The notes: generated from the sequence alone by a model not told the origin. 64,000 bases of DNA from Epulopiscium sp. Nele67-Bin005 (GCA_002007365.1 LNZR01000043.1:14131-78130); one strand, 5' to 3'; shown: positions 21,675 through 55,524, counted from the stretch's first letter. Numbers and translations: made by a program.

Positions 21675-23801
21675 ATGGAAAGATTTAATAATTTAAAGCT
21701 TGCCCGAAAACTTACTATAATAATTGTTCTTATTACAGCGCTTATTAATGGGATTTTGCTAACTGTTACCGTTACCAACGTCACCAAAAATAACGAAGAA
21801 TTAATTATGGACAAGTTTACTTTACAAGCTGAACTTAATGCAACAATTATCCAAAACTTGGTTACAAGTGGATTTAATATTGCAACAGATTTACAGGCTT
21901 ATATAGAAAATTCTTATGCCAATTTTACTGCACCACCAGTTGATGAAGAAGGTAACTCAACAGCTACAAACACTGGTATTGTGTATGGTGGGCCAATTGC
22001 TACAGGTAATTCCAGAATGGAAGACTACCTTTTAAATACAGCTTGGTCAGCGATTACTGATAATGAAGATGTTTCTGGAATTGGGCTATTTTTTGATAAA
22101 TACGCATTTGACCCAACTCAAGAAATTTACGCTTTTTGGGTATCAGAATTTAATGCCCAAAATCAAAGCTTTTTGCCAGTTTATAGTTATTCGGAGTATT
22201 CTAATGAAGAGTTTTTTACTGCTCCAAAAAGTACACACACACCATACATAACTACACCAGCACAAAATATTAACGGGGATTATACGTGTTATGTATCTTA
22301 CCCAATTATTTACCAAGGTGAATTTAAGGCCACTCTTTGTGTTGAGCTTATGGTATCAAACTTTGAGCGTACTGCAATTAGTAATCCAAAATATCCAACA
22401 CTATATTCTTCTATCTTAAATAGCGATTGGGTAATACTTTATGACTCTACAGATTTAGCTCATATTGGGCATAATGTTGGGGAATATTTAACTCCACAAT
22501 GTGTGGAAACTTGGACAGAACTTGCTGCAAAAGAAGAATTTTTTATAACAGAGGCAATTTATCCAAATAACGTTCGCCATTTAAGATTTGCCTCACCAAT
22601 TCAGGCAGGAAATGAAATTTGGTGGTCACATATAGAAATCTCTCCAGATAATTTATATAGTGATGTTGTTGAGATGACAGTAGTAATTGTTACACTATCT
22701 TTGGTGGCACTAGTTGCTCTAATTGTGTTAGTTACAGGATTTATTAACAAAATGTTAAAACCTCTTGATGCTGTTGTTGATGCGTCTAGTAGCATCGAAA
22801 ATGGAAATTTAACTATTTCTCTTGAGGCACGTTATACAGATGAAGTTGGGATTTTATCAAATAGTTTTATGGACATGGCCTCTCACCTAAAGTCAATTGT
22901 TAGCGAAATTGAGTTTGTACTTGGAGAAATGGCAAGAGGAGATTTTACGGCTATTTCCAAAATGAAAGCTAACTATAATGGTCAGTTTAGCCCTATCAAA
23001 AAATCTTTGTACGACATTAGCAAAACGCTTAGCCTCTCACTAGAAAATATTAACAAGGCTGCTACTGAAGTTAATCATGGCGCTGATGAAATTGCTGTTG
23101 GAGCAAGCGAAATCGCTCAAGGTACTATTGCTCAAGGTATGATTATTGATACGTTTGTAATGACTACTGGCAAAATTGAGAAAGCTGTAAATGATGCAAT
23201 TTGTCAAATCGAAGAAACAGGTAAAATTTCTCTAGAAGCTAAGCAAAAAGCTACAGAAGGAGTAAATTCTATGTCTAAAATGTTAACTTCTATGAATTTA
23301 ATTAATGAGTCTAGCCAAACTATTTCTGAAGTTCTAAAAACTGTTGAGGATATTGCTGAACAAACTAATTTACTAGCTCTTAACGCCTCAATAGAAGCTG
23401 CTCGTGCTGGAGAGGCTGGTCAAGGATTTGCCATTGTAGCCACTGAAATCCGTGAACTTGCAACAAGAAGTAGTGATTGTGTTCAACAAATTGAAAGTGT
23501 TATTAAAGAGAGTACATCTAATGTTGAAAAAGGTCAAGAGATGGCCAATGCTACTGCAAAAAGTCTTAATCAAATTGTAGATACAATTGAAAAAACTGCC
23601 GACATTGCACACACTTTACTTCAAACTAGTGAAGCTCAACAACATAGCATAGATGAACTTATAGAAGGTACATCACAAATCGAAAATGTGGTAAAAAGTA
23701 ATAATGCTACTTCTCAAGAAAGCGCTGCAATTAGTGAAGAACTTGCTTCTCAGGCACAGGCTCTCGAAAATCTTTTGCAACACTTTACATTTACTCACTA
23801 A
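21675..23801 (+). CDS. Methyl-accepting chemotaxis protein A1 (TM, ~300-aa double-Cache-like sensor, TM, HAMP, MA domain)
   Basis: [10 protein letters not shown]-terminus. TM1, then an extracytoplasmic region with FDKYAFDP / SYPIIY / WWSH motifs, then TM2. HAMP (KPLD...DEVGIL). Conserved hairpin [35 protein letters not shown]. Confidence 0.93.
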
Positions 23802-23958
23802 AAATATTATAAAAAGGCTAATAATTATGTTAGTCTTTTTTTTTATAAATTATTCTTAATAAATTTCTTCTTTAATAATATAAGTAATAGATAATTTGTT
23901 TACAAAATTATAGTAATTTGACCCAAAAGGCATAATCAAAAAATAATTAAGTATATTA

Positions 23959-23987
23959 TTGTGTGAAATATTGTTAAATGGTATACT
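23959..23987 (+). promoter_or_regulatory. Sigma-A promoter candidate for MCP A2 (extended -10)
   Basis: TTGTGT, a 17-nt spacer, then TGgTATACT, about 110 nt upstream of the ATG. Confidence 0.35.
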
Positions 23988-24096
23988 AAATATACAACTT
24001 AGGATAAGTTACCTACATAAGAGGTAAAATGTTAAAAAAAATTTAACTATTTTTTTGACTAAATAGAACTTAAAAGGGTAAAAGGGAGGATTATAT

Positions 24097-26235
24097 ATGG
24101 AGAAATTTAATAACTTTAAACTCGCAAAAAAACTAACATTACTAATGGCTCTAATAACAAGTATTATCTTGATGATTTTAGTAACATCTACTACCGTTGG
24201 AGTTGGCTATAGCAATTCAATTCTTATTATGGACAAATTTAAAGCTCAAGCCGAACTAAATGCAAATATCGTACAAAATATGTTAGATGGAGCATTTAAT
24301 GTAGCCACAAATTTACAAGCTTACATTGATAGTAATTTTTATAAATTTGGTGCGCCTATTTATGATGAAGAAGGAAATGTATTATCAACTAGCACAAGCA
24401 ACGTATATGGAGTGCCTCTTGCTGCTGCTAATTCTCGGGCTGAAGACTTTATACTAAACACAATATGGGCGGCAATTCTTGATAATCCACATATAGGGGC
24501 TGTGGGGGTGCTTTTTGATCCATATAAGTTTGACCCAACTCAAGAAATATTTTCATTTTGGGTTACACCAAATAAGGCTAATCAACAAAGTATGATACCT
24601 CTTACAGAATACTCGCAATATAGCACAGCCGATTTTTATACTTCTGTAAAACAAACTAAATCTCCAGTAATTACAACCCCTCTTTTAAATGCTGATAACG
24701 TATACACAAGTTTTATAGCCTACCCTATAGTTTATCAAAATGAATTTCAGGGCGTTATTTGTATTGAACTTTTGGCTACAAACTTTGACTATATAGCTGT
24801 AGAAAATCCACTATATCCAAGTTTACATTGTGCAATATTAACTGATGATTGGGAGATTTATTATGACTCAGAGTCGCTAACTCACATCGGAATGTATGCA
24901 GATGACTTTATTACACAAGAGTCTATGGATAAATGGAATGCTCTTGCTATTAAGCGTGAATTTTTTATCGTAGAAACACAGTATCCTAATGGTTCACGCC
25001 ATGTTAGATTTATATCACCAATAGAGGCTGGGGACGAACTTTGGTGGTCACATCTTGAGATTTCAACGTCAGATTTTTTATCAGAAGTAGTATCTCTTGT
25101 TGCTAAAATTATATTTATTTCTGTGGTGGCACTTATTTTACTAATTGTAATTATGACTCGTGCTATATCAAAACAACTAAAACCTATAGATAAAGTTGTT
25201 GAAGCATCTTCTCAAATTGCAGAAGGAAACCTAAATATTACAATAGTTACACCATACAATGATGAGATAGGAATTTTGGCCACAGGATTTAGTGGAATGG
25301 CCTCTCACCTAAAAACTATCATTACAGAAATAGAAGTAGTCCTTGGAAAAATGGCTGATGGCGACTTTACAGCTGCTTCAAATTCCAAACTACTTGCAAA
25401 TTATAATGGCCAATTTGCTCCTATTAAAAAATCTATGAGAACAATAGGAAAAAAACTAAGCTCATCACTAGAAAACATTACTCGTATTGCATCAGAAGTA
25501 AACCATGGGGCTGCTGATATTTCTGTTGCGGCAAACGATTTGGCACATGGTAGTGTGTCTCAAAGTTTATCAATTGATACATTTATTACAACAACAACAA
25601 ACATGGGGCAATCTATTTTAAATTCTCAATCCAAAGTAGAAAATGCCAAACAAATTTCTCAAAATGCCAAAGAAAAAGCCTCAAAAGGTGAGCAATCAAT
25701 GAAAGAAATGCTCACTTCTATGGAACAAATTAATAGTTCTAGCAAAACTATCTCTATGGTTTTGGGCAAAATAGAAGAAATTGCTGACCAAACAAATCTC
25801 CTTGCGCTAAATGCATCAATAGAAGCTGCTCGTGCTGGAGAGTCTGGCAAAGGATTTGCCGTTGTTGCTAGTGAGGTTCGAGATTTATCACTAAGAACTA
25901 CAAACATTATTAAAGATGTAAAGGAGATAATCCAAGAAAGCACTAGAAACGTTGATGAAGGTCAAAAAATCGCAAATCAAACAGCACATAGCCTTCATGA
26001 AATTGTTGAGGCAGTTGAGGTTACAGCCAAAATTTCAAATGAATTATCTCAAATTAGTACTTCTCAACAACAAAGTATACAAAAATTATTAGATGAGAGT
26101 TCAGAAATAACAGCTGTAGTTGAAGTTACAACAGCCACAAGTGAAGAGAGTGCTGCAATTAGCAATCAACTAGCTGGCAATGCTCACGCTTTAGAAGAAT
26201 TATTACAACACTTCAAATTTAGAAAAGATTTATAA
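24097..26235 (+). CDS. Methyl-accepting chemotaxis protein A2
   Basis: Same architecture as A1. Hairpin [35 protein letters not shown]. Confidence 0.93.
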
Positions 26236-26264
26236 AAAGCTACCTTTCGGGGTAGTTTTTTTTT
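26236..26264 (+). terminator. Rho-independent terminator of MCP A2
   Basis: CTACC/GGTAG stem followed by a T9 run. Confidence 0.7.
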
Positions 26265-26660
26265 GCAAAAATATATAATTTATAATAAAACCTACAATAA
26301 AAATTATAGTTATTCATTAATTTTTTCTTCTTAAATATGACTATTATTTTAATAATTAATTCCGATACTTAACAAATTATTTAGACAACTTTTATTAATG
26401 TTAGAAATGCGTTTATATTATGTATAATACAAAATTCATTACTTTGCATACTAGTAAACATTTCCACCAAATTATATTTTAACTTATTAATGATAATTAG
26501 TAATTTATTATTGATAATTAAAATACCATTAACTCATTTATAGCATTTATTAAAAATTTCATATATTGTTCATATTTCTACGGTAATTAAATGATAAACT
26601 ATTGAGGCAAACTTAACAATTTTACCTACCACACCAAAGGTACAAAGGAGGATATTTTTT

Positions 26661-28802
26661 ATGGAGAAGTTTAATAATTTAAAACTTGTTCGCAAACTAA
26701 TTATAGTTATAACCTTACTAACAACCATTATTTTATCAACGTTAGTAACAGTTACTGCATTTTCAGTAGCCAAAAATAACTATAGTATCATTATGGATAA
26801 ATTCACTTTACAAGCTGAAATGAACGGGACAGTTGTTCAATCAATAGTGGATAATTCTTTTAATGTTGCTACAAATCTACAAACATATATTTTAAATTCT
26901 TATTCAAAATTTGGTGCGCCTATTTATGATGAAGAAGGTAACGCCATATCTACAAACAAAAGTGCTGTTTATAATGTCCCACTTGCTGCGGCTAATTTCC
27001 GTATGGAAGATTACATATTAAACACAGCATGGGCAACAATTTCTGACAATCCTGATATTGGGGCTATCGGGGTACACTTTGAGCCATATGCATTTGACCC
27101 AACTTTAGAAACATATTCATTTTGGGTAACTACAAACAAAGCCGCACAAAATAGTATGATACCTCTACCTAGTTATGATGTTTATAGTACATCAGATTTT
27201 TATTCAGCGACCAAAGCTACTCTACAACCCGTAATTACGCCACCTGCTCAAAATACAAATATTGATAATCAAGGGCAGTATAGTAGTTATATTTCATATC
27301 CAATAATCTACCAAAATCAGTTTAAAGGGGTTGTCTGCATAGAATTAATTACTTCAAACTTTGACCGTACTGCAATTAGTAACACACGTTATCCAAGTTT
27401 GCACTCCTCTATATTAAGTAGTGAGTGGACAATTATTTTTGACTCCGAAAGCGACGAAAATATAGGTCTTAATGTATCAGACTTCCTAACAACAAAAAGC
27501 CTTGAAACTTGGCTTCATCTATCTAGCAATAACGAGTTTTTTAGCCTTGAAACAGCATACCCAACTGGTGAGAAACATATTAGATATAGCTACCCAATTA
27601 CTGCTGGGAACGAGATTTGGTGGTCACACGTTGAGCTTACGACAACAGATTTTTATAGAGATGTTATAAATATAGTTTCTACAATAATTATTATTTCTGT
27701 AGGTGCAATTATAGCTCTCATTTGCCTTGTATCAATGTTTATCAAATATTTATTACAACCACTTGATGATATAGTACAAGCTTCTGCACAAATCTCAGAA
27801 GGGAATTTAAATGTTATTGTTACTTCTAGTTATTCAGATGAATTTGGAATACTCGCAAATGGATTTACTTGTATGGCTGCTCACCTAAGAAGTATTATTA
27901 TAGAAATTGAAGCTATTCTTGAAGCTATGGCTCATGGAGATTTTTCGGTTGTTGATGAAGATAATTTTGAGGCAAATTATAATGGTCAATTTGCTCCTAT
28001 AAAAATCTCTCTAATCCAAATTGGACAAAAGCTTAGTGAGTCCTTGGAAAATATTAGCCGACTAGCTACAGAAGTTAACTTTGGGGCAGAAGATACAGCA
28101 ACTACAGCTACTGAGCTTGCTATGGGAAATGTTGTTCAGAGTGGAGTTGTGGATACGTTTTTGGACGCTACCGAAAATATCGAACAAGCTGTAATCGACA
28201 CCAGAGTTAAAATTGAGCAAACCGAACAAATTTCTTATGAGGCACAACAAAAATCTACCATAGGAGCAACAGCCATGGAAGAAATGCTAAAATCAATGCA
28301 AGAAATCTCTCAAGCAAGCTCAACTATTTCTGAAGTATTAAAAACTGTTGAAGATATTGCAGAACAAACCAACCTCTTAGCTCTTAATGCAACAATAGAA
28401 GCTGCTCGTGCTGGGGAAAACGGAAAAGGGTTTAATGTTGTTGCTACTGAAGTTCGTAACCTAGCAATAAGAAGCCAAGAAAACGTACGTGAAATAGAAA
28501 ATGTTATTAAAGATATTAGTCAAAGCGTTGAAAGAGGCGAGAGTATGGCCAACTCAACTTCACAAAGTCTACGTGAAATTGTAGATATTGTTGAACAAAC
28601 AGTTCATATTACACAAGAATTGATGACAGCAAGCGAAGTCCAGCAAGAAAATATTAAAGAAGTTATTAACGGGACTGAAGAACTTAATTCAGTTATTGAA
28701 AATAATATTGCGACTAGTCAACAAAGTGCCGCAATTAGTCAACAGCTTGCCTTTAATGCACAATCATTAGATGAGCTACTACGTTCCTTTAAATTTGAAT
28801 AA
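26661..28802 (+). CDS. Methyl-accepting chemotaxis protein A3
   Basis: Same architecture. Hairpin [35 protein letters not shown]. Confidence 0.93.
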
Positions 28803-28807
28803 ATTTT

Positions 28808-28841
28808 AGCTATAGGCCAACCTGCCTATAGCTTTTTTTTT
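28808..28841 (+). terminator. Rho-independent terminator of MCP A3
   Basis: AGCTATAGG/CCTATAGCT stem followed by a T9 run. Confidence 0.85.
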
Positions 28842-29229
28842 GTAGATTTTTTAAATAAGTGGAACATTTTTATAAAAAAATACGTCTATATATTAAACTA
28901 CTGAATATAATTTTTTTAATTTGGATAAGTAGTCAATTTGAAAATTTTATTTAAAAAATGTAACTAAAATTTTAATAGTTGTCAAAACTTGCCGAAAAAC
29001 ATATTATAAATAATTTATAATGTGCAGTATAACTTTTATAATTTATATGAAAAAAGTAGTTCAATTTGTATATGTATGATAAAATGAGGGTGGACACGTA
29101 AAATTACGTTAACAAATTGTTTATAATTTGTTAGTGTCTACATATTTTCTTCAAATGTATTAGCTACATTGAACTATATACAAAATCTGTTACTTAAGAA
29201 AGTTTTAGCAAAATAAGGAGGATATTTAA

Positions 29230-31341
29230 ATGAAAACTTTTCACAATTTAAAACTAACCAAAAAACTAAGTATCATTATTGGTATTGGCGTATTTATTGC
29301 TTTTACCTTGCTCTTAGTTATTACTAACTATAGCGTTGCCAAACAAGGTCGAGAACATCTTATTGAAAGATTTAGCGTGGAAGCTAAACATAATGCATAT
29401 GTAGTGGAGAATATGCTCTATGATGGATTTGGTTTTTCTGATGATTTATTAAGCCACATCGTTTATGAGTGGAGTGGGTTAGAAACTGCTCAACCCGATG
29501 ATAACACTTATACAAGCAAAGTTTATAATAACCTAGAACTATTAAATCAAAATTCTAGACTAGAAGATTACATACTAAATATAGCTTCTGTTATCGTTAA
29601 TAACAATGCAAATGTGGCTGGAGTTGGAGTATATTTTGAACCATACACTTTTGCCAGAAACTTGGATACTTATGGGTTTGAAATAACTGAAGCTAGTGCC
29701 AAAAATTATACAGCTGTGCCATCTACAAAATATAGCGATTATGCTAATGAAGAATTTTATCAGTGGGCAAAAACTACAAAAAAGCCTCATGTTACATTGC
29801 CAATATTATATCCAGACGGCAGAAGAATTAGCCACATAACATCTCCAATTATTATTAATAATATATTTAAAGGAGTGGTTGTAACTGACCTTATTACTAC
29901 AAATTTTGAAGATACAAAAGTATCTGACCCAGAGTATCCAACTCTTTTTTCTGCTGTATTAACAAATGATTGGGAAATTATTTATGATGCCGAAGCTGAA
30001 GAGCATGTTGGGCTTAACGTTTCTGATTTTCTAACACCACAAAGCATGACAAAATGGGAAAATTTAGCAAAAAATGAACAATTTTTTATTATTGAAACAG
30101 AATATCCAACTGGAGAAGAGCATATAAGACTTCTATCACCTATTCAAGCTGGGGCAGATATTTGGTGGGCCCATGTAGAAATCCAAACTACAGATTTGTA
30201 TTCTGATGTTTATAGTTTAGCCATTAAAATAGTTGCTTGTGGAGGTTTTTCATTAGTAGCGCTTATAATGTTTGCTGGAGGAGCAATTAGAAAGATGTTA
30301 AAACCACTTGATGAAATAGTGGAGGCTTCTATTCAAATCCAACAAGGAAATTTAGATGTACAAGTTCATTCTCCTCACAATGATGAAATAGGGATTTTGG
30401 CACAATCATTTACAATAATGAGCCTAAAACTCAAAAATATCATTGGAGAAATTGATACTATCTTGGATAAGATGGCACAAGGAGATTTTACATCTACTAA
30501 CAAAATGGTGGTACAATATGATGGGCAATTTGCATCTATCAAAACGGCGCTTATTGGAATTTCTGATAATCTAAGCTCATCATTACAAAATATTAACCGT
30601 TCTGCCAATGAAGTTAACTCTGGAGCAGACGATATTTCAAAAGCTGCCAACGACTTGGCTATAGTTAGTGGTGCGCAAACAGATACTATTTGTGAATTTA
30701 TGGCAACTACAGAAGATATCGCACAACACATTAATAATACTATGCAACAAGTTAAAGAAAGCGAGAAAATTTCTCTTGAGGCCAAACAAAAAGCTCATAC
30801 AGGTTCTAATTCTATGAAAAATATGTTAGTATCTATGGAGCAAATTAATGAGTCTAGCCAAACTATTTCTGAAGTTTTACAAACAGTTGAGTCAATTGCC
30901 GAACAAACTAACTTATTAGCTCTAAATGCCGCTATTGAAGCTGCTCGTGCTGGTGAGGCTGGTCAGGGGTTTGCTGTTGTTGCTACAGAAATCCGTGAGC
31001 TTGCAACAAGAAGTAGTAACAGTGTTCACGAAATTGAAGCCGTTATCAAAACTAGCATTAGAAATGTTGAACAGGGTCAAGCTATGGCCAATGAAACTTC
31101 AAAAAATTTAGAAGATATTTTTGTTACAATCGAAAAAACTGCCAACATTGCTCAAAATTTATTAAAAGTTAGTGCTGAGCAACAACAAAGTATTTCAGGA
31201 CTTGTTGAGGGGACTCGCCATATTAGCAGTTCTGTTCAAACAACTACAGCAACCTCAGAACAGAGTGCTGCAATTAGTGATGAACTTGCTCGTCAGGCTC
31301 AAAATCTTAATGAACTTTTGACACAGTTTAAGTTTAATTAA
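29230..31341 (+). CDS. Methyl-accepting chemotaxis protein A4
   Basis: Same architecture. Hairpin [35 protein letters not shown]. Confidence 0.93.
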
Positions 31342-31398
31342 TTAAATAGGCTACCCTTAGTTGGGTAGTCTTTAATTAGTTCAAAGTTTGCTTATAAT

Positions 31399-31425
31399 TA
31401 ATACAAATTTGGTTGCAACCGATAA
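31399..31425 (+). promoter_or_regulatory. Sigma-D-like promoter candidate upstream of MCP A5
   Basis: TAAT, a 15-nt spacer, then ACCGATAA (31418-31425), about 90 nt upstream of the ATG. Confidence 0.3.
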
Positions 31426-31514
31426 ACCTATTATGGTATCATTATACATATAGATTTTTTGACAAATTATTTTATAATACTTAATCTTATTACAATTGAG
31501 AAAGGAAATTACCA

Positions 31515-33617: not shown

Positions 33618-33633
33618 AAAACTCTAAAAAAAG

Positions 33634-33661
33634 CTACCTAAAATTTACAGGTAGATTTTTT
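33634..33661 (+). terminator. Rho-independent terminator of MCP A5
   Basis: CTACCT/AGGTAG stem followed by ATTTTTT. Confidence 0.65.
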
Positions 33662-36011: not shown

Positions 36012-36016
36012 AAAAA

Positions 36017-40952: not shown

Positions 40953-40953
40953 A

Positions 40954-42952
<1,999 letters not shown>

Positions 42953-42961
42953 TACAGTTCT

Positions 42962-43044: not shown

Positions 43045-43866
43045 TTACTTTTTAAAAAGCTGATTTTCCCGAGCATAATAAAACAAATATTGCTGAGCAT
43101 AACCAGCCAAATCACCATAATAATCTAAGGCAAAATCCTTAATTTTTTTGAGACTTTGCTCCTCACCATTAAAGTATAGCCCTTCCATCACTCTTTTAAT
43201 CCAAACATCAGTAGGAAAAATATCATTTTTTTTGTATGCAAAAAGCAAAATACAATCAGAAACTTTTGGGCCAACTCCACTAATTTGCATCAAATATTCA
43301 CGGGCATCATCAGAATTCATATTATAAATTTGATTTAGGTCAATTGTACCATCACTTACTTTTGCACAAGCATCTAAAATATACTTATCCCTAAATCCAA
43401 CTTTACATTCCCGAAGCCCCTCATTAGTCGCCAAAACAAGTTGTTCAACCGTTGGAAATGCATAATAATCTTCACCATGCATTTGATTTTTGCTACCGTA
43501 TTTTGCACAAATATTTTCGATAGATTTTTTTATATTTGGAATACCATTATTTTGTGAAATTATAAAAGAAATCAACATCTCCCAAGGGTCTTGCTTCAAA
43601 ATTCGTATCCCACCCCCAAATTCCACAGCATTTTTCATATGTTCATCTTTGCTACTAAGTACCTTTTTTATTTGAGAATAATCAGTTTCGCCATCAAAAT
43701 AGTTATACCAAAACTCATTATACTCATCTAAATTATTATCAGTTTCTTCATTATATATACCAAAATTATTTTGTGCGATGATACGGAATGTGTGTGGAGT
43801 TGGTTCGCAAAACCTAAACACTTGACCACATTCCAAAGTTTGTCTAATATTAAAATTTGTATTCAC
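43045..43866 (-). CDS. ogg: 8-oxoguanine DNA glycosylase / AP lyase (Ogg, HhH-GPD superfamily)
   Basis: HhH-GPD signature (ISGVGPKVSDCILLF ... FPTDVWIKR), 273 aa. Confidence 0.8.
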   Translation of the reverse strand: MNTNFNIRQTLECGQVFRFCEPTPHTFRIIAQNNFGIYNEETDNNLDEYNEFWYNYFDGETDYSQIKKVLSSKDEHMKNAVEFGGGIRILKQDPWEMLISFIISQNNGIPNIKKSIENICAKYGSKNQMHGEDYYAFPTVEQLVLATNEGLRECKVGFRDKYILDACAKVSDGTIDLNQIYNMNSDDAREYLMQISGVGPKVSDCILLFAYKKNDIFPTDVWIKRVMEGLYFNGEEQSLKKIKDFALDYYGDLAGYAQQYLFYYARENQLFKK

Positions 43867-43968: not shown

Positions 43969-46077
43969 TTAATCAAACTTAAAGTACGTTAATAATGTCT
44001 GCAACATTTGAGCCTGACTAGCTAGCTCCTGACTTATTGCTGCTGTTTCTTCCGAAGTTGCCGCATTATTTTGGACTACATCAGAAATAATTTTTGTACC
44101 TTTAACAAGTTCCGAAAGCCCTTCATATTGCTCCTCACTAGTTACCAATAAATCATGCGCAATTACTGCTGTTTTATCAATAGTTTCAACAATTTCTTGC
44201 AAACTATCAGCAGTTGAATTAGCAAGGATTTGACCCTTTTCTACACTGCTTGTATTTCTCTTTAAAACGTTCTCAATCTCATGCACACTTTGCGCACTTC
44301 TTGTTGCAAGCTCACGAATTTCATTGGCAACAACACCAAATCCTTTACCTGCTTCACCTGCTCTTGCAGCTTCAATTGTAGCGTTTAGAGCCAATAAATT
44401 AGTTTGCTCAGCAATATCCTCTACATTTTTTAACACTTGTGTAATTACTGCTCCTGACTTATTAATCTCTTCCATAGAAGCTACCATTTGTTGCATATAC
44501 TTTGTCCCTTCATGAGCCTTTTGTTTAGCCTCTTGAGAGATGTCTTTACACTCTGTAAAACGTGATGTTGTATTTGTGATATGCGCTGTAATTTCTTCTG
44601 TAGTTTCAATAAAACTATCAACTATAATAGCTTGGTCTGTTGCTCCTATTGCAAGCTCTGTCGCTGCATGGGCAAGCTCTGCTGCACCTGTAGTTACCTC
44701 ATCAGCCGACGTTTCTATTCGTTGCAAAGTGCCATGTAACTTATGAGAAATTTCTACTAAAGCACTTTTAATAGGAAGAAAATCCCCATCATACTTTGCC
44801 TGCATCTCCAAACTTTTATTAAAATTACCTTGTGCCATCTCATCTAAAACAAGTTGCACCTCACTAATTATAGCTCTTAACTTTGCCGTCATTTTCAAAA
44901 ATTCTTGTGCCAGCATACCCGGCTCATCATTATAAAACTCTGGCATCTTAACATTAAGATTTCCTTTTTGAATTTCAGAAGCCGAATTCACTATAGTATG
45001 AAGTGGAGCTAATAATTTTCTTGTTAACACATTTATACCAAAGTTTAATAATACTAATCCTGATACTGATAATACCAACAAATTTCCTGCTAACGCTGTA
45101 GCATCTGAATATAAATCCGAAGGTTCAACAGCAATATTTGCCCACCAAATATCATTTCCAGCCTTAATTGGTGAAAATACTCGGCTATGCTTAGACCCAT
45201 CTAAATAAGATGTTTCTACAGTAAAAGTTTCTCCGTACTTTGCAAGCTCCTTAATATCTTCCATACTTTTTGGAGAAAGATATGCATCTAAATTTTGCCC
45301 AATATAATCTGCACTATTTGACTCATAAATTATTTCCCAATCTCCAGATAATACCGAAGTAAAAGCCGTTGGAAATTCTAAATTATCCATATTTGTTTGC
45401 TCAAAATTATCAATTATAATATCTGCAAAAACTACTCCTTTAAATTGATTATTTATAACAATTGGATAACTCACATGACAAATTCGTATACCATTAGATA
45501 GTTCATCTGGCAGAGATACATACGGCTCTAATGTATTTTTTGGTATTGTATAAAAATTCTCTGTTGAATATGAATTATAATCAGTAAAAACTGTTGGTGA
45601 ATTCAAATTATGTTGAGTAACTTTAAATGCATAAATCTCCTGAGTTGGGTCAAATGCGTATGGCTCAAAATATATCCCTACCCCATAAATATTTTTGTTA
45701 TTTTTACTAATGTATAATGCACGATTTTTCAAAATACTTTCCATCTCCAAATTTTCATCTGAAAACTGCTTGTTATATAATACACTAAGATTTTCTAACG
45801 GTTCATATTCTTTGTATGGCGCTCTTAACGAATTATATTCATCAACAATATAACCCTTTGTATCTATAACAAAATTTGCGGCATCTTCAAGCAAACCTTC
45901 TATTAATAATGCATTATATTTTGCTGCCGAATTGAATGTTTCCCCCACACGTTTCTGATTTAAATCAATAACTCCATAACCTGTAACATAAGTTGTTAAT
46001 AATAAGATAAGTGTAACATAAATCCCCAAAACCAATGATAATTTTTTGTTTAACTTTAAATTGTTAAATTTTTCCAT
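43969..46077 (-). CDS. Methyl-accepting chemotaxis protein B1
   Basis: Same architecture as the plus-strand arm. Hairpin [35 protein letters not shown]. Confidence 0.93.
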   Translation of the reverse strand: MEKFNNLKLNKKLSLVLGIYVTLILLLTTYVTGYGVIDLNQKRVGETFNSAAKYNALLIEGLLEDAANFVIDTKGYIVDEYNSLRAPYKEYEPLENLSVLYNKQFSDENLEMESILKNRALYISKNNKNIYGVGIYFEPYAFDPTQEIYAFKVTQHNLNSPTVFTDYNSYSTENFYTIPKNTLEPYVSLPDELSNGIRICHVSYPIVINNQFKGVVFADIIIDNFEQTNMDNLEFPTAFTSVLSGDWEIIYESNSADYIGQNLDAYLSPKSMEDIKELAKYGETFTVETSYLDGSKHSRVFSPIKAGNDIWWANIAVEPSDLYSDATALAGNLLVLSVSGLVLLNFGINVLTRKLLAPLHTIVNSASEIQKGNLNVKMPEFYNDEPGMLAQEFLKMTAKLRAIISEVQLVLDEMAQGNFNKSLEMQAKYDGDFLPIKSALVEISHKLHGTLQRIETSADEVTTGAAELAHAATELAIGATDQAIIVDSFIETTEEITAHITNTTSRFTECKDISQEAKQKAHEGTKYMQQMVASMEEINKSGAVITQVLKNVEDIAEQTNLLALNATIEAARAGEAGKGFGVVANEIRELATRSAQSVHEIENVLKRNTSSVEKGQILANSTADSLQEIVETIDKTAVIAHDLLVTSEEQYEGLSELVKGTKIISDVVQNNAATSEETAAISQELASQAQMLQTLLTYFKFD

Positions 46078-46256
46078 TGCTGTCCTCCTTACTCTCTTTA
46101 ATATGTACTAAGCTTGTATATCTTTTCTAATTTGTCACAAAATCCTCAAATCTATAATACCATGACTTGACTAAATTACGCAAATAACTAAGTTTTAATA
46201 TATTATTAACTTTAATAAAAAATAGGCTACCATTTAGATAACCTATCCCCTAATAA

Positions 46257-48347
46257 TTATTCAAACTTATAATGTGCTAATAAATTTTGAAGTAGCTCTG
46301 CCTGACTTGCAAGTTGCTCACTAATTGCTGCTCCCTCTTGTGAGGCTGAGGCATTAGATTGAATTACATCTGCAATTATTTTGGTCCCTGCAACAAGCTC
46401 CTCAATACTTTCATATTGCTTATCATTTGCCAACAACAAATCATTTGATATAGTAGCAGTCTTTTCAACAGTCTCCACAATCTCCCTAAGACTTTGTGAT
46501 GTTTCATTTGCCATCTGCTGACCAAAAGACACGCTACGTTGACTAGCTTTTATCACCTTCTCTATCTCATGAACACTGTCTGTACTATGGTTTGCAAGCT
46601 CCCGAATTTCACTAGCAACAACAGCAAATCCCTTGCCTGCCTCTCCTGCTCTTGCGGCTTCTATACTGGCATTTAGGGCCAACAAATTAGTTTGGTCAGC
46701 AATATTTTCTACAGTCTTTAATACCTCCGAAATAATTTGACTCGAATTACTAATTTCTTGCATAGAGCCTAACATTTTTTCCATACTTTTAACGCCATCA
46801 TACGCTTTTTGCTTTGCCTCATTAGAAATACTCTCACTTTCTTTAAATGAAGTAGCTGTAGAATTCACTTGTTGTGCGATTTCTTCGGTAGTTTTTATAA
46901 AGCTATCAATAACTAATGTCTGCTCTGATGTTCCCTTTGCCAAATCTGTAGCCGAATATGCAATTTCACTTGCACCCAAACTTACCTCACTTGCAGTAAT
47001 ACTAATTTCTTGCAAAGAACAACTTAGACTCTTAGAAATTGTTCCCATAGCCTTTTTAATAGGAAGAAACTCCCCTGGGTAATTTCCTTTCAGCTTAGAT
47101 ACTGCTGTAAAATCTCCTTCTGCCATATCCTCCAAAACATCATCAATTTCTGTAACCAATTCTTTTAATGTAGTTGACATATGCTCAAATCCTTTTGATA
47201 ATTGACCCATCTCATCATTATTTTGACTCACAAGAGCCGTATTAAAATTACCTTTTTCTATGGCAACTTGAGCCTGTAATACATCATGAAGTGGAGCTAA
47301 TAATTTTTTGGTTATATTTGTAATCATTATAAGTAAAAATATAACGGCAACTACTGCAACCACTACAATTAGCGACATCACATCAGTTACTGCCTCATAT
47401 AAAATGTCTTCACTCATTCCAATTACAGCCCACCAAACATATGTCCCTGCCTGAATTGGGCAAAAAACTTGAATTAATCCATCATCATTTTTGGTACTAA
47501 ATACAAACGATATTCCGTTTTTTGCAAGAGAGTTTAAAGTTTCCATGTTTTTTGAAGTTATATACTTGCTTATATTTTCTCCCATACGTTCTTCGCCTCT
47601 TGTATCAAAAACAACTTCCCAATCATTAGTAAATATTGCTGAATATAATGATGGATATTCTGGGTCAGTCATAGCAATTTCACTAAATTCTGAAGTTATA
47701 ATATCAGCTACTACCACCCCTTTAAATTGTCCATCTACAATTATTGGATAACTAACATGACTCATTCTTACCCCATTATCCAACAATTCTGGGTTTGAAA
47801 CATATGGTTGCATCGTATTTTTTGCCACAGAATAAAACGCCTGTGAAGCATAACTTGAATAATTTTGCAAAATAATCGGTGTCATATTATTGATATCAAC
47901 TTTAAACCCATACGTATCCATATTGATATCAAACGCATATGGCTCAAAATATATTCCAACCCCATTTATATGAGGGTTATTTTTATTCGCAAAAATTGCT
48001 CGGCTTAACAAAAAATCTTCCATTCTTGCATTTTGAGGCGAGATATTTGTATTATATAATACACTAGTATTATCTTCCTCATCTGTAGCACTCCTTAATG
48101 AGCCGTATTCCTCAACTATATACCCCTGTACCTCACTTGCAAAATTATATGCCTCATCAATTAAAGCCTGCACAAACAAGGCGCTATAATGCGACCCTAA
48201 CGCAAATCTCTCCATAATAGCAGTTTGGCTTATATTATTTACTTTTCCAGCTGTAATTATTGTGGTGATAGCTAAAATTATAGTTATAAACACACCTATT
48301 ATTATGTTCAATTTTTTACTTAGTTTAAAATCTCGAAATCCTCCCAT
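46257..48347 (-). CDS. Methyl-accepting chemotaxis protein B2
   Basis: The start is placed at [13 protein letters not shown] (ATG 48347), which has a GAGGAGAGGGA SD. Same architecture. Confidence 0.9.
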
Positions 48348-48617
48348 TCCCTCTCCTCTCAATAAGATAACTTTTGAATACAATTTAAATTATTAATTAT
48401 TAATAATTTTTTCAAATATGTATAGAGAAATTATATATTACCTTATAATATACCATGCACTTCTTCAATTTAGCAATAAATTATCTTTTAAATAACTATA
48501 AATATTACCTAAAAAATATTTTTATCTATTAGTTAAATTTCATTAAACAAAAATCCCATATATTAACAATTCCTAGAAAACTTATTTATAAATTAAATTT
48601 TTTATGGAAAATTCACC

Positions 48618-48651
48618 CAAAAAAGACTATGGAAAATTTATATCCATAGTC
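48618..48651 (-). terminator. Rho-independent terminator of MCP B3
   Basis: GACTATGGA/TCCATAGTC stem with a T-run on the minus strand. Confidence 0.8.
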
Positions 48652-48675
48652 TCAAAGCCCTGCTCGCTTTTTACG

Positions 48676-50772
48676 TTAGTCAAATTTAAAATGTGATACC
48701 AAACTTCTAAGACCTTCTGCCTGAGCTGCCAACTCCTGACTAATTGCCGCACTCTCCTGTGAAGCTGCCGCATTTACCAAAATTACGCTCGCAATCTGAT
48801 TAGTCCCCTCAACAAGCTCTGTCACACTCTCACTTTGCTTTTGACTAGCGTCCAATAAATCTTTAGAAATATTTGCTGTTTTATCAACAGTTTCCACAAT
48901 CTCAATAAGGCTATTTGCTGTTTGATTTGCGATTTGCTGACCTCTCTCAACACTTGCCAAACTTGCTTTAATAACTTCATCAACTTGTTGCACACTTACT
49001 GTACTTCTGTTTGCCAAATCTCGGATTTCATTTGCAACAACTACAAACCCTTTACCCAAATCTCCAGCTCTTGCGGCTTCAATACTTGCATTTAAAGCAA
49101 GAAGGCTTGTCTGGTCAGCAATGCTCTCAACTGTCTTTAATACATCAGAAATAATTTGGCTAGAACGACCAATTTCCTTCATCGCATCTAACATTTCATT
49201 CATACACTCAGCACCTTCACCAGCTTTTTGTTTTGCATCTTGGCAAATTCGTTCGCTCTCTTTAAATGATAATGCCGTTTCACTAATATGAGCTGCTATT
49301 TCTTGCGTCGTTTCCACAAAACTATCAACAACTATAGTCTGTTCGGTTGCTCCTTTTGCAAGCTCAACAGCGGCATAAGCAATTTCTGAAGCACCATGAC
49401 TTACCTCTTCAACTGACAAATTAATTTCTCTCAAAGAAGCACTTAAATTTTGTGAAATATCATTTAGTGCATTTTTAATAGGAAAAAAGTCCCCATTATA
49501 AGTTACTTTTAATTGTGAAACAGCTGTTAAATCTCCTTTTGCCATATCTGTTAAAATATTGTCAATTTCACGTATAATATTTTTGAGTTTGTCAGACATA
49601 TCCACAAATCCTCGTGATAATACACCAATCTCATCTTCATACGGGTTAGAAATATTAATATCAAGCTTCCCTTCACCAATACTTTTTTGAGCGTCCAATA
49701 CGTCTTCTAATGGATTTAATATTTTTCTTGCAACTAATCTAATAACTATATTTAAAGATAATATAGCCAAAATTGAAAAACTAACAATAATAAAAGTTGT
49801 GTGTGTTACATCTGAATATAAATCCGATGGTTCAATCCCAATTAATGCCCACCAAGTTTCAGCACCTGCATAAATTGGCGATAATATTCTAAAATGTTTT
49901 GTACCATCTGGATAAACCGTTTCCACCTTAAATGGCTCACCTTTTTTTACTAATGCTTCTATCTCCTCAAGACTTTTTTCAGTTATATAATTAACCAAAT
50001 TATGGCCAACATAACCTTCTATTCTTGAGTCATAAACAAATTCCCAATCACTTGATAATACTGAAGAAAATATTGTTGGAAAATCATCAGCAACTACTTT
50101 AGTTTTATCAAAATTACTAGCTAAAATATCGGCAACAACTACCCCCTTAAATTCTTCATCAATAATAATTGGATAACTAATATGACTAACTATTACACCG
50201 TTTGATAACACTCTCGGCTTTGAAACATATGGTTCATATGTATCTTTTGGCGTTGTATAAAAATCCTCATAAATATAATCATTAAGATTTGTTATGGCTG
50301 AGGCACGCTCACTACTATCATCAACCTTAAATGCATATACTTCTTTTTCTGGGTCAAACGCATATGGCTCAAAATAAACTCCAATTCCAAAAATATGTGC
50401 ATTATTTTTATTTGCATAAGAAGCTCTATTTATTAAAAAATCTTCTACTCTTTGATGCCTACCCGAAAATTCCATATTATACAACAAACTTTCATTATCA
50501 TGTTCATGTTGATGATACATTAAACTTTTATATTCATCAACTATAAACGCCTGTGTATCAATTACAAAATTATAGGCCTCATCTATAAGCGATTGCACAT
50601 ACAATGCGTTATACTGAGCTTTTGCACTAAACCTCTCAAGCACTGCTTTTTGGCTAAGTATATTAACTTCATATGCCGTTATTAAGGTGGTGACTGCCAA
50701 AATTAGTGTTACAAATAATCCAATTATTAATGTCAATTTTTTTCCAAGTGGCAAATTCTTAAATTTTTCCAT
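48676..50772 (-). CDS. Methyl-accepting chemotaxis protein B3
   Basis: Same architecture. Hairpin [35 protein letters not shown]. Confidence 0.93.
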
Positions 50773-50910
50773 AATTCTCTCCCCATAATCTGTAGGTATT
50801 TAAAAAGTTTATTACTTTTGTATAATTTCTCTAATATATATAATACCATATTAATAACAAAATGTCGAAAAAAAAGCGAACTATATATAAAATATAATCC
50901 ACTTTTTTTA

Positions 50911-53013
50911 TTAGTCATGAAATGTAAATTGTGTCAATAAACTTTGTAAACTTTCAGCCTGAGCAGCTAACTCCTCACTAATTGCCGCACTCTCCTCTGA
51001 GGCTGCCGCATTTACCTGAATTACTTCCGAAATCTGTCCAGTTCCTTCAACAAGTTTTGCAATACTTCTATGTTGCTTCTCATTAGCAAGCATTAACTTT
51101 CTTGAAATATCAACAGTTTGTTCAACAGTATCTACAATTTCTACAAGACTGTTTGCAACTTCTGTCGCCATCTCTTGCCCCCTATTAATACTATCTAAGT
51201 TTGCCTTAATAACTTCCTCAATCTCCTTAACACTTGCCGTACTTCTAATTGCCAAATTACGAACTTCAGACGCAACTACAGCAAATCCTCTTCCAAATTC
51301 TCCTGCTTTGGCTGCCTCTATTGTAGCATTTAGAGCAAGTAAATCTGTTTGGTCTGCAATATCTTTAACAGTTTGTAATACATCAGAAATAACCTTCGTA
51401 GAACTATTAATATCATGCATAGACCCCAACATATCTTGCATAGAATTTGCCCCCTCATTCGCCTTTATTTTGGCCTCACTACAAATTCTCTCGCTCTCCT
51501 CAAATGCAAAGTTATTAGTATCAATTTGCTTAATAATACTTTTGGTAGTTTTTAAAAATTGGTCAATAACCAAAGTTTGTTCTGTAGTACCTCTTGCAAG
51601 TTCTACAGCAGCAAACGAAATTTCACTAGAACCATGAGTTAACCCATCAACAGAATCATTAATTTCTAACAAAGAGATATTTAACTTTTCTGATAGTTCA
51701 ACTAATGCCTTCTTAATAGGGAAAAACTGCCCATCATAAGTTACTTTCATTGCTGATATTGACGTAAAATCTCCTTCTGCCATACCACCCAAAATATGCT
51801 CAAGTTCTGAAATAATATTTTTAAGTTTAACCGTCATATTCTCAAATCCTAACGACAACATTCCCACTTCATCTTCGGTTTTATGAGGTAGCATTATATC
51901 AAAATTACCTTTTCCAATTTCAGCTTGTGCCTCAATAATTTCCATAATAGGCTTCGTTAATTCTTTAGAAACTTTAGCAATTATAAAGTTTACTACCAAA
52001 ATTGCACATATCAAAATTCCAATAACGATACTTGTAATTCTTATAGTCGCATAATTTAAATCATGTGGCTCAACTGCAATAATTGCCCACCAAGTTTCAG
52101 CACCTGCCTTAATTGGAGACAACATTCTAAGGTGGGTTGTCCCATCTAAATATTGAGTTGTAATATCAAAACTTTGCCCAGCCTGTGCCAATTGGTTAAG
52201 ATTATTCAAATCCTCTCCACGAATTAAATCTCTCAAATTTTGCCCAACATACTCATCACCCTTAGAATAATATACAACCTCCCAATCTTCAGTAACTACA
52301 ACAGAAAATAAAGTTGGAAACTCCTCACTAAATATACGAGTTTGTTCAAAATCTATCGTACGAATATCAGCAACAACTACCCCCTGAAACTTACCATCTA
52401 GTATAATTGGATAACTAATATGGCTAATTTCCAAATTGTTTCCAACTTTTTCTGGTCTTGAAACATATGGCTCTAAAGTTTGTTTTGGCACAGAATAAAA
52501 CGGCTCATTAGAATACTCTGAATAATTATTTATAGCAGTAATATCACTATTTTCATCATCAATTCTAAAAGCATATGCGTGCTGATTTGTATCAAAAGTG
52601 TACGGCTCAAAATACACCCCCACACCAAAAATATGTGCATTATTTTTGTAAGTATATATAGCTCTACTTATTAAAAACTCCTCTATTTTTGCATTCTGAT
52701 CCGAAATTTCAACATCATATAATAAACTTTCTTCTGTGGTGTCATTTCCTTGCTCCTCAATAAAACTATTAAATTCATCAACTATATAGCTTTGTGTATC
52801 AATTACAAAATTATACGCTTCATCAATCAAACTTTGTACAACTAAAGCATTATATTGGGCCTTTAAAGTAAATCGTTTAGAAATTGAATCTGTGCTTAAC
52901 TCCTTTACCTCAAACGCCAAAACTATCGTAATAATTAATAAAATTGCTGTAATAAATCCTCCAATAATCAAACTTAACTTTTTACTAAGTTTATAGTGTT
53001 TAAACCTTTCCAT
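50911..53013 (-). CDS. Methyl-accepting chemotaxis protein B4
   Basis: Same architecture. The start is probably the second ATG (MERFKHYKL), 6 nt after GAGGAG; the first ATG (53019) abuts the SD. Confidence 0.9.
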
Positions 53014-53372
53014 TTTCATCTCCTCTGTAATTTTTTGGCAAAAATATCCAAAAATTTATTTTTTCTTTATAAACTTTATATACGTTTATTTAGTTTATAA
53101 TATTTTATTAACTTCGCATCTGTATATATTTAATATAACACAATATTTTTAAAAAGTGAAACAAAAAATTAGATTAAATCTAAGTATACAGAATTTTAAA
53201 TATATATTTAATAATATACACCAGCTAATTATTTTATTTATCTAAATATATTAGGACAAAAAAAGCAGTTCATCACGATTTCTGGAATTCATAAATCTCA
53301 AATGGCTTTTCCAATCTTATTTTCACATTTAAAATATTCCCTACAAATCATTTTATATTTAATTTAAATCAC

Positions 53373-53407
53373 AAAAAAATAGGCTATAAACAATTTGTTT
53401 ATAACCT
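53373..53407 (-). terminator. Rho-independent terminator of MCP B5
   Basis: AGGCTATAAACAA/TTGTTTATAACCT stem with a T7 run on the minus strand. Confidence 0.8.
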
Positions 53408-53424
53408 AAACTTATGCAAAACTT

Positions 53425-55524
53425 TTAGTCAAATTTAAAAAATGCCAATAACTCTTCTAAACTCTCTGCCTGACCAGACAACACTTCACTAACAGCAGCG
53501 TTCTCTTCAGAAGTTGCCGCATTATTTTGTACAACATCAGAAATAATTTTTGTTCCTTTTACAAGCTCAGACAAACTCTCATGTTGTTCAGCACTTATAA
53601 CCATCAACTCATTTGCAATAACTGCCGTTTGATTAATAGTAGTAACAATCTCAACCAAACTATTAGAAGTAGCATTTGCCAACTGTTCTCCACGCTCAAT
53701 ATTAATTTGCGTTTGATTAACAACTTCTTCAATCTCATAAACACAATTGGCACTTCTATCAGAAAGTTCACGGATTTCACTTGCAACTACTGCAAACCCT
53801 TTACCTGCCTCACCTGCACGGGCTGCTTCAATTGTTGCATTTAACGCAAGCAAACTAGTTTGGTCTGCAATTGCCTCAACAGTTTTTAATACAGTAGAAA
53901 TAGTTTCTCCAGAATTACTAATTGCCTTCATAGATTTTAACATCTCTTCCATAGAGTCAGCCCCTTCATGAGCCTTTTGTTTTGCCTCATTAGAAATACG
54001 CTCACACTCTTCAAATTGAGAAGTAGTATTTGTAATATGATTAGTAATTTCTTCTGTAGTTTCAATAAAACTATCAACAATAATTGCTTGGTCTGTAGCA
54101 CCTACTGCAAGCTCCAAAGATGACTGCGAAATTTCACTAGCCCCCTGACTTACCTCTTTTGAAGCGATACTAATATTTTTTAATGAGCCACTAAGCTGTT
54201 CAGTAATGGACATTAGGGCCTCCTTAATAGAAAGAAACTGCCCATGGTAACTAGCTTGCATATTTGAAGTTGCCGTAAAATCACCCTTTGCCATAGCTCC
54301 TAATACAAACTCAATTTCATTTATCAATTCCTTTAATCCAGAACCCATTTCCATAAATCGTTTTGACAATACCCCAATCTCATCATTAGTATTAATTTGT
54401 AAATCTAAATTAAAATCACCCTTTTGAATTTGTTCAGCCACAACAACAACCTCATCTAATGGCTTTAACAATTTAGTAATTCCAACCTTTATAACAGTGT
54501 TCAAAATTAACAAAACAATAATTGCCATCATAACCATAATATACGAAAGATAATTCATATCATCATACACATCATTTATATTAATTTCTACATGGGCCCA
54601 CCAAGTTTCGTACCCAGCATCAATTGGTGATAAAAATCTCATATGTTGTGCGCCATTATGATATGTTGTTTCAATAACAAAAAATTTCTCTTTCTCAACT
54701 TCATTTAGCCAACGAGTCATGCTATCAAGTTCTAAGTAGTCTTCAACGTGTTTACCTGTACTACCAATCCCCTCACTATCATACATAATTTCCCAATTAT
54801 CTCTCAAAATTGAAGTATATAATGTTGGCATATCCTCATCATAAATACGTGTTTGAGAAAATTTATTAGTTAAAATTTCTGCAACAACAGCACCTTTAAA
54901 CTGCCCATTTACAATAATCGGATATGTAATATACGAATTACTTATACCGTTATCCATAAGTTGTGGTGATGAAAAATATGGTTGCATTGTATTTTTAGGA
55001 ATAGTATAAAAATTTTCATTTGCGTAATCAGAGTAATTTTTATAAACTTCAACATTTGTTCCTGTTCCATCAACTGCATAACCATAAGCTTGTAAATTTG
55101 ATGTAAATGCATATGGCTCAAAATATACCCCAGCCCCAATAATTACATCATGATTTTGTATATGAAATTTAATTAAATTTAGTATGTATTCCTCAAGCCT
55201 AGAATTTGAACTAGAGAGCATTAAGTCATTATATACCAAACTATTATATGTATTTTCATCAACAATACTACTCCCCGTTTGTAGCACATTAGAAATATAA
55301 ACTTGTACTTCCGAAATAAATTCAAACCCTTCATTTAATAAACTCTCTACAACAACAGCATTTGTTCTAGCTTCTGCACTTAACCTATCAACAACAGCAT
55401 CTTTACTCACAGTACGAACTTGAGCAAGGGTAATAGTCATCATAACTGCAATTACAACTGATAAACTTATCCCAATAATAAATGTTAATTTACTAGAAAG
55501 TTTTTGGTTATTAAAATTATCCAT
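53425..55524 (-). CDS. Methyl-accepting chemotaxis protein B5
   Basis: Same architecture. The cytoplasmic part is near-identical in patches to B1. Confidence 0.93.

Follow-up and report, generated by a model that had tools for sequence, protein, structure and literature searches.

Paralogous chemoreceptors are found in more than 60% of genomes, with PctABC providing a worked example (PMC6974571), and Tlp2/3/4 represents another case of paralogous chemoreceptor expansion (PMC9769880). In both the Pseudomonas aeruginosa PctA/PctB/PctC and the Campylobacter jejuni Tlp2/3/4 sets, methyl-accepting chemotaxis proteins (MCPs) of the double-Cache (dCache) type have been duplicated, with conservation of the signalling part and divergence of the sensor, and it is this sensor divergence that gives rise to new ligand ranges. 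Here we describe a locus of the same kind within a 64,000-nucleotide stretch of DNA from Epulopiscium sp. Nele67-Bin005 (LNZR01000043.1:14131-78130; the whole stretch is referred to below as the window), in which 13 paralogous MCP genes, designated M1 to M13, lie in two rows on either side of the genes ogg-groES-groEL. Whereas the Pct and Tlp sets comprise three members each (with an average identity above 77% for PctABC), the 13 receptors described here have an overall protein identity of ~45%, and, unlike those of the Pct and Tlp sets, their sensors belong to a subfamily that falls outside the Pfam model dCache_1.

The mcpA-tlpA-mcpB-tlpB cluster of Bacillus subtilis consists of four tandem, co-oriented dCache MCP genes that encode proteins with the order TM1-sensor-TM2-HAMP-MA (TM, transmembrane segment; MA, signalling domain) and are unlinked to the che operon. 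The products have 44-heptad signalling domains, and the genes have sigma-D promoters. By comparison, the locus described here contains 13 genes in two opposed rows, and its receptors have a 36-heptad length and a second HAMP domain, with no sigma-D consensus at the genes. The cytoplasmic part is like that of Escherichia coli Tsr/Tar, to which it aligns without gaps over the whole stretch between the HAMP exit and the end of the helical bundle and with which it shares the hairpin tip and the methylation-site positions of the C-helix. However, Tsr/Tar have a four-helix-bundle sensor, one HAMP domain, and an NWETF tether, whereas a dCache sensor, two HAMP domains, and no tether are found here. 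The sensor has the bimodular fold of PctD (7prq), MkcA (9heh), TlpQ (6fu4), mmHK1S-Z3 (3lib), and the Roseburia uracil receptor (9hvj), in which a long N-terminal helix is followed by two PAS-like modules, at only 12-16% sequence identity to those structures. Within the related surgeonfish gut symbiont lineage, Candidatus (Ca.) E. viviparus (type B) is motile and chemotactic, with a full set of B. subtilis-type chemotaxis adaptation genes and highly expressed MCPs, and three canonical and seven putative MCPs were reported from its genome (PMC10756260). Against these ~10 MCPs, 14 are encoded in the single 64-kb window analyzed here.

Layout of the array and domains of its receptors

Inspection of the window revealed 13 intact paralogous MCP open reading frames (ORFs) of 696-713 aa after start refinement, eight on the + strand (21675-40916) and five on the - strand (43969-55524). 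The MCP coding DNA totals ~27.5 kb within a span of 33.85 kb, and the gaps between successive MCP genes are 138-450 bp, with a gap of 37 bp between M8 and groEL. At the DNA level, the array is visible as a repeat every 2.24-2.58 kb, the units being 60-75% identical, and it is, to our knowledge, one of the larger contiguous chemoreceptor arrays in bacteria. SD-like (Shine-Dalgarno) purine runs were present 5' of each of the 13 starts, with weak ones for M5 and M8. Three starts (M8, M10, and M12) were refined by means of the conserved N terminus, M-x-x-F-x-N-L-K-L, and the purine-rich SD run preceding it, which placed the M8 start at 38787 in place of an over-extended TTG at 38628 and gave end coordinates of 48347 and 53013 for M10 and M12, respectively, both on the - strand. 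The receptor genes are as follows, with the supporting evidence in parentheses.

M1: 21675-23801, + strand; dCache-HAMP-HAMP-MCP receptor, 708 aa, subfamily M1-M3 (ORF, Pfam, sensor structure model).
M2: 24097-26235, + strand; 712 aa, subfamily M1-M3, identical to OON96982.1 (ORF, Pfam).
M3: 26661-28802, + strand; 713 aa, sister of M2 (ORF, Pfam, tree).
M4: 29230-31341, + strand; 703 aa, at the base of the M4-M13 clade (ORF, Pfam, tree).
M5: 31515-33617, + strand; 700 aa, sister of M6 (ORF, Pfam, tree).
M6: 33909-36011, + strand; 700 aa (ORF, Pfam, tree).
M7: 36462-38582, + strand; 706 aa, sister of M8, identical to OON96987.1 (ORF, Pfam, tree).
M8: 38787-40916, + strand; 709 aa, start refined from 38628 (ORF, Pfam).
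M9: 43969-46077, - strand; 702 aa, signalling module sister to that of M13 (ORF, Pfam, tree).
M10: 46257-48347, - strand; 696 aa, start refined (ORF, Pfam).
M11: 48676-50772, - strand; 698 aa (ORF, Pfam, tree).
M12: 50911-53013, - strand; 700 aa, start refined (ORF, Pfam).
M13: 53425-55524, - strand; 699 aa, identical to OON96996.1 (ORF, Pfam).

These ORFs agree with an initial annotation of the window, which had claimed 13 complete genes of these lengths and orientations, the same amount of coding DNA in the same span, and an SD sequence and a 138-450-bp spacer for each gene. That annotation had also described two convergent arms, which holds for one arm only. Given that groEL, groES, and ogg all lie on the - strand, true convergence is confined to the + arm, which runs onto the groEL 3' end, whereas the - arm (M13 to M9) lies upstream of ogg-groES-groEL and is co-directional with it. 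Exact-sequence matching identified the receptor proteins in NCBI as OON96981-OON96996 (locus tags ATN36_04435-04510), where all are annotated as "hypothetical protein."

All 13 receptors share one architecture, which comprises TM1, a dCache sensor, TM2, two consecutive HAMP domains, and a signalling domain of 36-heptad length without a C-terminal tether. Pfam searches returned matches to MCPsignal (PF00015, best E value of 2.7e-41) and HAMP (PF00672) in every protein and to HAMP_2 in 11 of the 13. Kyte-Doolittle analysis revealed exactly two hydrophobic segments in each case, at residues ~13-33 and ~325-360, and the consensus of the hairpin-tip region was invariant at most alignment positions across the family. 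With MCPsignal and its tip, two TM segments around a sensor, and HAMP, the 13 proteins have the predicted features of class I MCPs.

The initial annotation had termed the sensors double-Cache-like. MCP-like_PDC_1 (PF22673), a Pfam model related to dCache_1, matched 11 of the 13 sensors with a best E value of 4e-10. An AlphaFold2 model of the M1 sensor, for which the alignment of the 13 paralogs was used as input, had a predicted local distance difference test (pLDDT) score of 89.4 and a predicted template-modelling (pTM) score of 0.83 and displayed a long helix followed by two alpha/beta modules. When this model was compared with the PDB by Foldseek, all 50 of the matches listed were Cache-type sensor domains or constructs containing one. 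The top matches were all dCache ligand-binding domains, aligned over ~300 columns at a probability of 1.0, with E values down to 8e-16, template-modelling scores of ~0.65, and sequence identities of 9-16%; MkcA, PctD, mmHK1S-Z3, and TlpQ ranked highest (E values of 1e-16 to 1e-10, template-modelling scores of ~0.6-0.7), and the Roseburia uracil receptor and TlpA/TlpC were also among the proteins matched. A sequence profile of the sensor (hmmsearch) also matched 3lib/3li8 with an E value of 3e-11, the 3lib match covering both modules. The Foldseek neighbors of the model together with the 3lib/3li8 profile match justify the dCache label, such that the earlier description is correct by predicted fold, although the subfamily falls outside dCache_1.

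The cytoplasmic part of M9 could be aligned without gaps to residues 233-516 of E. coli Tsr, hairpin tip included, and its first 45 residues aligned to the HAMP domain in the HAMP-Tsr fusion 3zx6. E values for the signalling domain against Tsr structures were 1e-34 to 1e-36, and with the NCBIfam Tsr/Tap models, 267-268 residues aligned to 267-268. The proteins end 129-132 residues past the hairpin tip (as measured in 12 of the 13), and the alignment to TM1143 (2ch7), a protein of the 44-heptad (44H) class, was shorter or unequal in length. In the scheme of Alexander and Zhulin, receptors of the 36-heptad (36H) class have ~18 heptads per arm. As judged from alignment, the signalling domain fits the 36H length and register, with no heptad insertions or deletions relative to Tsr. 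At the level of sequence, the methylation-site consensus [ASTG]-x-x-[EQ]-[EQ]-x-x-[ASTG] is kept in the adaptation region of all 13 receptors, with EE, QE, EQ, and QQ variation. This site aligns with VEES of Tsr, and a second site is present in 5 of the 13.

Divergence, selection, and descent

Mean pairwise identity among the 13 paralogs was 39% in the sensor (range of 29-57%), 45% in the first HAMP domain (34-60%), 51% in the second HAMP domain (35-75%), and 55% in the signalling (MA) domain (45-75%). The nonsynonymous divergence (dN) was 0.57 for the sensor versus 0.37 for the signalling domain. Greater divergence of the sensors than of the signalling modules, as had been claimed for this locus, was therefore evident by either measure. 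The most variable alignment columns corresponded to loops of the membrane-distal Cache module, and the strands of the sensor with YFEPYAFD and SYPII..G.FKGVV were conserved.

Nucleotide identity among the copies was 57-68% overall. The synonymous divergence (dS) of 0.8-1.9 was saturated, and dN/dS was 0.16-0.58 in every domain. Saturated dS together with dN/dS below 1 throughout points to old duplications, all copies of which have been maintained, and purifying selection appears to act on all 13. Saturation of dS led us to abandon dN/dS as a criterion for positive selection. We also considered and rejected recent gene conversion or concerted evolution: no segment exceeded 86% nucleotide identity, the peaks coincided with the strongly constrained hairpin tip, and long conversion tracts were not found in the nucleotide comparison of the 13 paralogs.

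Bootstrapped neighbor-joining trees revealed that sister genes adjoin physically, the groups being M2-M3, M5-M6, M7-M8, and M10-M11-M12. That sisters are physical neighbors is a signature of tandem duplication. Outgroups were drawn from a full HMMER search, which returned 1090 matches at E ≤ 1e-3 and 172 at E ≤ 1e-30, and outside sensors reached at most 38% identity to any of the 13. With these outgroups included, M4-M13 formed one lineage-specific clade (80% bootstrap) and M1-M3 another (100%), whereas monophyly of all 13 receptors received a bootstrap value of 5%. The M1-M3 subfamily may group with proteins of other Epulopiscium bins. The claim of an expansion locus is consequently upheld insofar as it denotes tandem expansion, but not as a single homogeneous expansion, given two subfamilies with so little joint support. 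Nor is the locus actively expanding, since the dS values and nucleotide identities given above denote old duplications. A mirror-image inverted duplication of a five-gene block was likewise discarded as an origin of the two arms, as M8/M9, M7/M10, M6/M11, and M5/M12 are not sisters and sisters lie within arms.

One pair departed from this pattern. M9 and M13 have sister signalling modules (66% identity, 97-99% bootstrap), yet the relationship holds in that module only, the two sensors being just 34% identical, and similarity breaks near the start of the MA domain. Sister signalling modules joined to such dissimilar sensors indicate a probable old module exchange between these non-adjacent paralogs.

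The GC skew at third codon positions, calculated for the coding strand, was +0.47 to +0.64 in the - arm and 0.00 to -0.32 in the + arm; for other genes in the window, it was +0.16 to +0.63 on the - strand and -0.08 to +0.07 on the + strand. G+C content was even across the window. We infer that the - strand is probably the leading strand, which would make the + arm a 19-kb lagging-strand block, and that both arms may have kept their current orientation for so long that synonymous sites have reached equilibrium.

The family is not confined to this contig. Scanning of metagenomes with the sensor profile returned 14 loci, 10 of which came from surgeonfish-gut whole-genome shotgun (WGS) projects (MDSO/MDSP/MDSQ), and smaller tandem arrays of four, four, and two genes were found on other contigs of the same metagenome. 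Four tandem MCPs of the family are present on the contig encoding ATN36_03105, which NCBI assigns to the same metagenome-assembled genome (MAG); four more, together with a sensor-only ORF, are on another contig; and two are on a third. The sensor-only ORF (MDSP01000005.1, 8829-9734; 301 aa) has an N-terminal TM segment and a sensor-like part alone, lies directly upstream of the four-gene array, and may represent either a stand-alone sensor or a paralog that has been truncated. Identity was higher within arrays (56-61%) than between them (45-54%), which points to separate local expansions. Tandem arrays therefore appear to be the usual mode of this receptor family, with repeated expansion in these genomes; the homologues inspected in Ca. 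E. fishelsonii and Nuni2H_MBin001 were single genes. In total, the MAG has at least 19 MCP genes, 14 in the 64-kb window and at least 5 on other contigs, with the qualification that bin attribution is uneven, proteins on contigs with the WGS prefix MDSP being named both Bin004 and Bin005.

The groESL core, transcription signals, and flanking genes

The features located between the two rows of receptor genes are as follows.

Bidirectional terminator-like hairpin: 40917-40953, no strand assigned; A-run, 10-bp stem, and T-run, common to the convergent M8 and groEL.
groEL: 40954-42585, - strand; conserved core of the locus, not a member of the receptor family.
groES: 42610-42897, - strand; Pfam Cpn10.
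CIRCE (HrcA operator): 42926-42952, no strand assigned; inverted repeat directly upstream of groES with one mismatch, none expected by chance.
Sigma-A-like promoter sequence: 42990-42962, - strand; TTGAAA-17-TATTAT, just upstream of CIRCE.
ogg: 43045-43866, - strand; 8-oxoguanine DNA glycosylase by Pfam, forming with groES-groEL a trio that is kept in relatives.

Because CIRCE lies upstream of groES, groESL is predicted to be under classical heat-shock control that is independent of the receptors. The terminator of M9 lies before ogg. A functional or regulatory link between groESL and the receptors was considered and rejected in view of the CIRCE element and promoter-like site that groESL possesses, the flanking terminators, and the lack of conservation of the MCP neighbors.

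In groEL comparisons, Epulopiscium sp. Nuni2H_MBin003 and Ca. Epulonipiscium fishelsonii were the nearest genomes, each with 90% identity, and Cellulosilyticaceae came next at ~86%. In the relatives compared, ogg-groES-groEL is conserved and the receptor array is absent beside it: an aminotransferase and unrelated genes lie upstream of ogg in Ca. E. fishelsonii, the his operon lies downstream of groEL in Nuni2H_MBin003, and two contigs with groEL identities of 87-88% carry DUF6062 upstream and unrelated genes downstream. That relatives keep the trio without such MCPs implies that the link is only positional, and the position of the array beside groESL appears to be incidental. In the contigs compared, the array is not an ordinary locus common to relatives, and its sensors are both Cache-like by predicted fold and divergent; the outcomes that the initial annotation had named as refuting its reading were thus not observed. 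Among 80 more distant genomes, taken from the groEL matches listed and all at ≤76% identity, an MCPsignal protein was encoded within 10 kb of groEL in 2, and none had this sensor. On one of the two contigs at 87-88% (ENA; groEL 88% identical), a single MCP gene with a different sensor, Cache_3-Cache_2 (8743-10473), directly follows groEL in the same direction. Hence, the occurrence of an MCP gene beside groESL is not unique, but that of this receptor family and of the array is.

A hairpin followed by a T-run was found within 75 nt of the stop codon in 12 of the 13 receptor genes, with predicted stabilities of -6 to -18 kcal/mol; in M4, the 3' hairpin has a poor T-run. With gaps of 138-450 bp and terminators after 12 of 13 genes, the array does not have the sequence features of a single operon, in accord with the independent-looking units of the initial annotation. 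Since each gene has its own ribosome-binding site, AT-rich spacer, and terminator, it is probably transcribed alone.

A 28-nt box, AAATCGTGATGA-N5-CTTTTTTGTCC, was observed in three copies with at most one mismatch, where shuffled sequences predict none. The copies lie at 19289-19316 (- strand), 33741-33768 (+ strand), and 53254-53281 (- strand), the first downstream of gntR and the other two upstream of M6 and M12, respectively, each directly after a terminator and some tens of nucleotides 5' of a -10-like TAT-rich stretch. No Rfam family matched the box at the gathering threshold; it could be a regulator-binding site or a small repeated element.

Ordinary chromosomal genes flank the array on both sides. 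The left flank contains htpG, tRNA genes, radA, clpC, alr with mazF, acpS, rex, and genes for an ABC-F ATPase and a GntR regulator. Directly downstream of alr, at 13073-13709 (- strand), a PemK/MazF toxin gene (118 aa) overlaps an upstream ORF of 95 aa; an alr-antitoxin-mazF arrangement is known from Bacillus. Near the left end, a 638-aa ORF (31-1947, + strand) has a C-5 cytosine DNA methylase domain at residues 1-261, the match starting at profile position 58, and its C-terminal 370 residues match nothing. Two neighboring ORFs (1992-3095 and 3258-3857) gave no Pfam match, and the three possibly belong to a locus for restriction-modification or defence. The right flank comprises nine tRNA genes, genes for a Ham1 pyrophosphatase and an amidase, ligA, and a gene for a shorter MCPsignal protein. 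The tRNA genes of the window form clusters at 7095-7518 and 55878-56690, both on the - strand. The nine-gene cluster is directly upstream of M13 and has an internal duplication, with tRNA-Gly(tcc), tRNA-Arg(tct), and tRNA-Gln(ttg) each present twice at identical Rfam scores. The shorter MCPsignal protein, the 14th of the window (62846-63913, - strand; 355 aa), is encoded beside ligA and lacks the dCache sensor; no Pfam match was obtained for its residues 1-167, and the protein is possibly soluble or a receptor of another kind.

Interpretation of the locus

We consider it probable that the locus represents a lineage-specific tandem expansion of one dCache chemoreceptor family in a fish-gut Epulopiscium-like bacterium. 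The principle of such expansion is already known, and the locus is an unusually large case of it that entails no new mechanism. Repeated, ancient single-gene tandem duplications would have built the two rows around a pre-existing ogg-groES-groEL, and each copy would have been kept under purifying selection and expressed from its own transcription unit. Through their conserved signalling hairpins, all 13 receptors would couple to a single CheA/CheW array whose genes lie elsewhere in the genome. The more divergent sensors, especially the loops of their membrane-distal Cache module, would recognize different small molecules and so broaden the set of gut chemicals to which swimming responds. Of these elements, monocistronic expression, coupling to a single Che pathway, and recognition of different ligands are what we infer from the features described above.

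Several observations weigh against this interpretation. Pfam dCache_1 itself matched just 1 of the 13 sensors (E = 0.009), and the nearest solved sensor structures are only 9-16% identical and give no ligand for the subfamily; at the 12-16% identity of the dCache structures named at the outset, none can be transferred. In line with the initial annotation, which had reported no cheA/W/Y/R/B in or near the array, the whole 64-kb window contains no che gene, so that coupling to a chemotaxis pathway is an assumption. The usual partners of Firmicute F1-type pathways are 44-heptad receptors, and the 36-heptad length makes the identity of the partner pathway less certain here. Sigma-70-like matches in the AT-rich spacers were, for the + arm, barely above those in shuffled sequences, and the sigma-D consensus TAAA-N14-17-CCGATA gave one intragenic match versus 0.65 expected. 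Saturation of dS makes dN/dS a crude measure, and the comparison of gene order around groESL draws on short contigs that show one side each, those of Ca. E. fishelsonii stopping just after groEL.

Alternative explanations differ in what they take the number of receptors to be for. A role in dosage or structure, whereby many MCPs would supply receptor lattices and membrane invaginations in a putatively very large cell rather than breadth of ligands, draws on the proposal that MCPs of Ca. E. viviparus help to fold its internal membrane system (PMC10756260) and on the richness of the array region in highly expressed genes, including groESL and two tRNA clusters. We regard it as unlikely, as copies retained for dosage are expected to stay similar, but here sensor identity is 29-57%, dS is saturated, and no gene-conversion tracts were found; furthermore, 8 of the 13 genes are on the presumed lagging strand, which is unusual under selection for very high expression. 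A related proposal, that the locus is a module-shuffling receptor bank in a giant, highly polyploid cell serving both sensing breadth and lattice or membrane architecture, would have paralogs swap sensor and signalling modules, as in M9/M13, and mass co-expression help to build the extensive lattices and membrane folds proposed for Epulopiscium; we judge this to be quite improbable.

The receptors might instead feed one or more non-motility Che-like pathways, as a bank of inputs for gene regulation or development and not for taxis. The lack of che or flagellar genes nearby would agree with such an output, as would the 36-heptad length, given that the B. subtilis-type system of the relative classically uses 44-heptad receptors. 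MCP genes are, however, commonly unlinked to che operons, the near-identical hairpin tip in all 13 argues for one common partner in place of multiple pathways, and classical taxis receptors have this same topology, with HAMP domains and a conserved methylation site; a non-motility output thus seems improbable. We attach very little probability to the view that the genes are neutral, largely redundant duplicates in decay or an artefact of metagenome assembly or binning. The sequence does come from a MAG, and the bin names of sister contigs are inconsistent (Bin004/Bin005, prefix MDSP). Decay or an artefact is at odds with 13 intact frames, conserved motifs, dN/dS below 1 in every domain, even G+C, and a third-position GC skew that fits the strand of each arm, as expected for long residence. 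Moreover, the copies are just ~60% identical at the DNA level, which makes short-read collapse or chimeric joining through repeats unlikely.

Lineage-specific tandem expansion of one dCache family thus remains the interpretation that we favor, and within it the adjacency of the array to groESL is probably incidental. The locus comes from a barely studied group of surgeonfish gut symbionts with giant bacteria among their relatives, and it provides 13 naturally diversified sensors on a signalling scaffold that is colinear with Tsr. As a consequence of this colinearity, mapping of the ligands by means of E. coli hybrid receptors should be practical.

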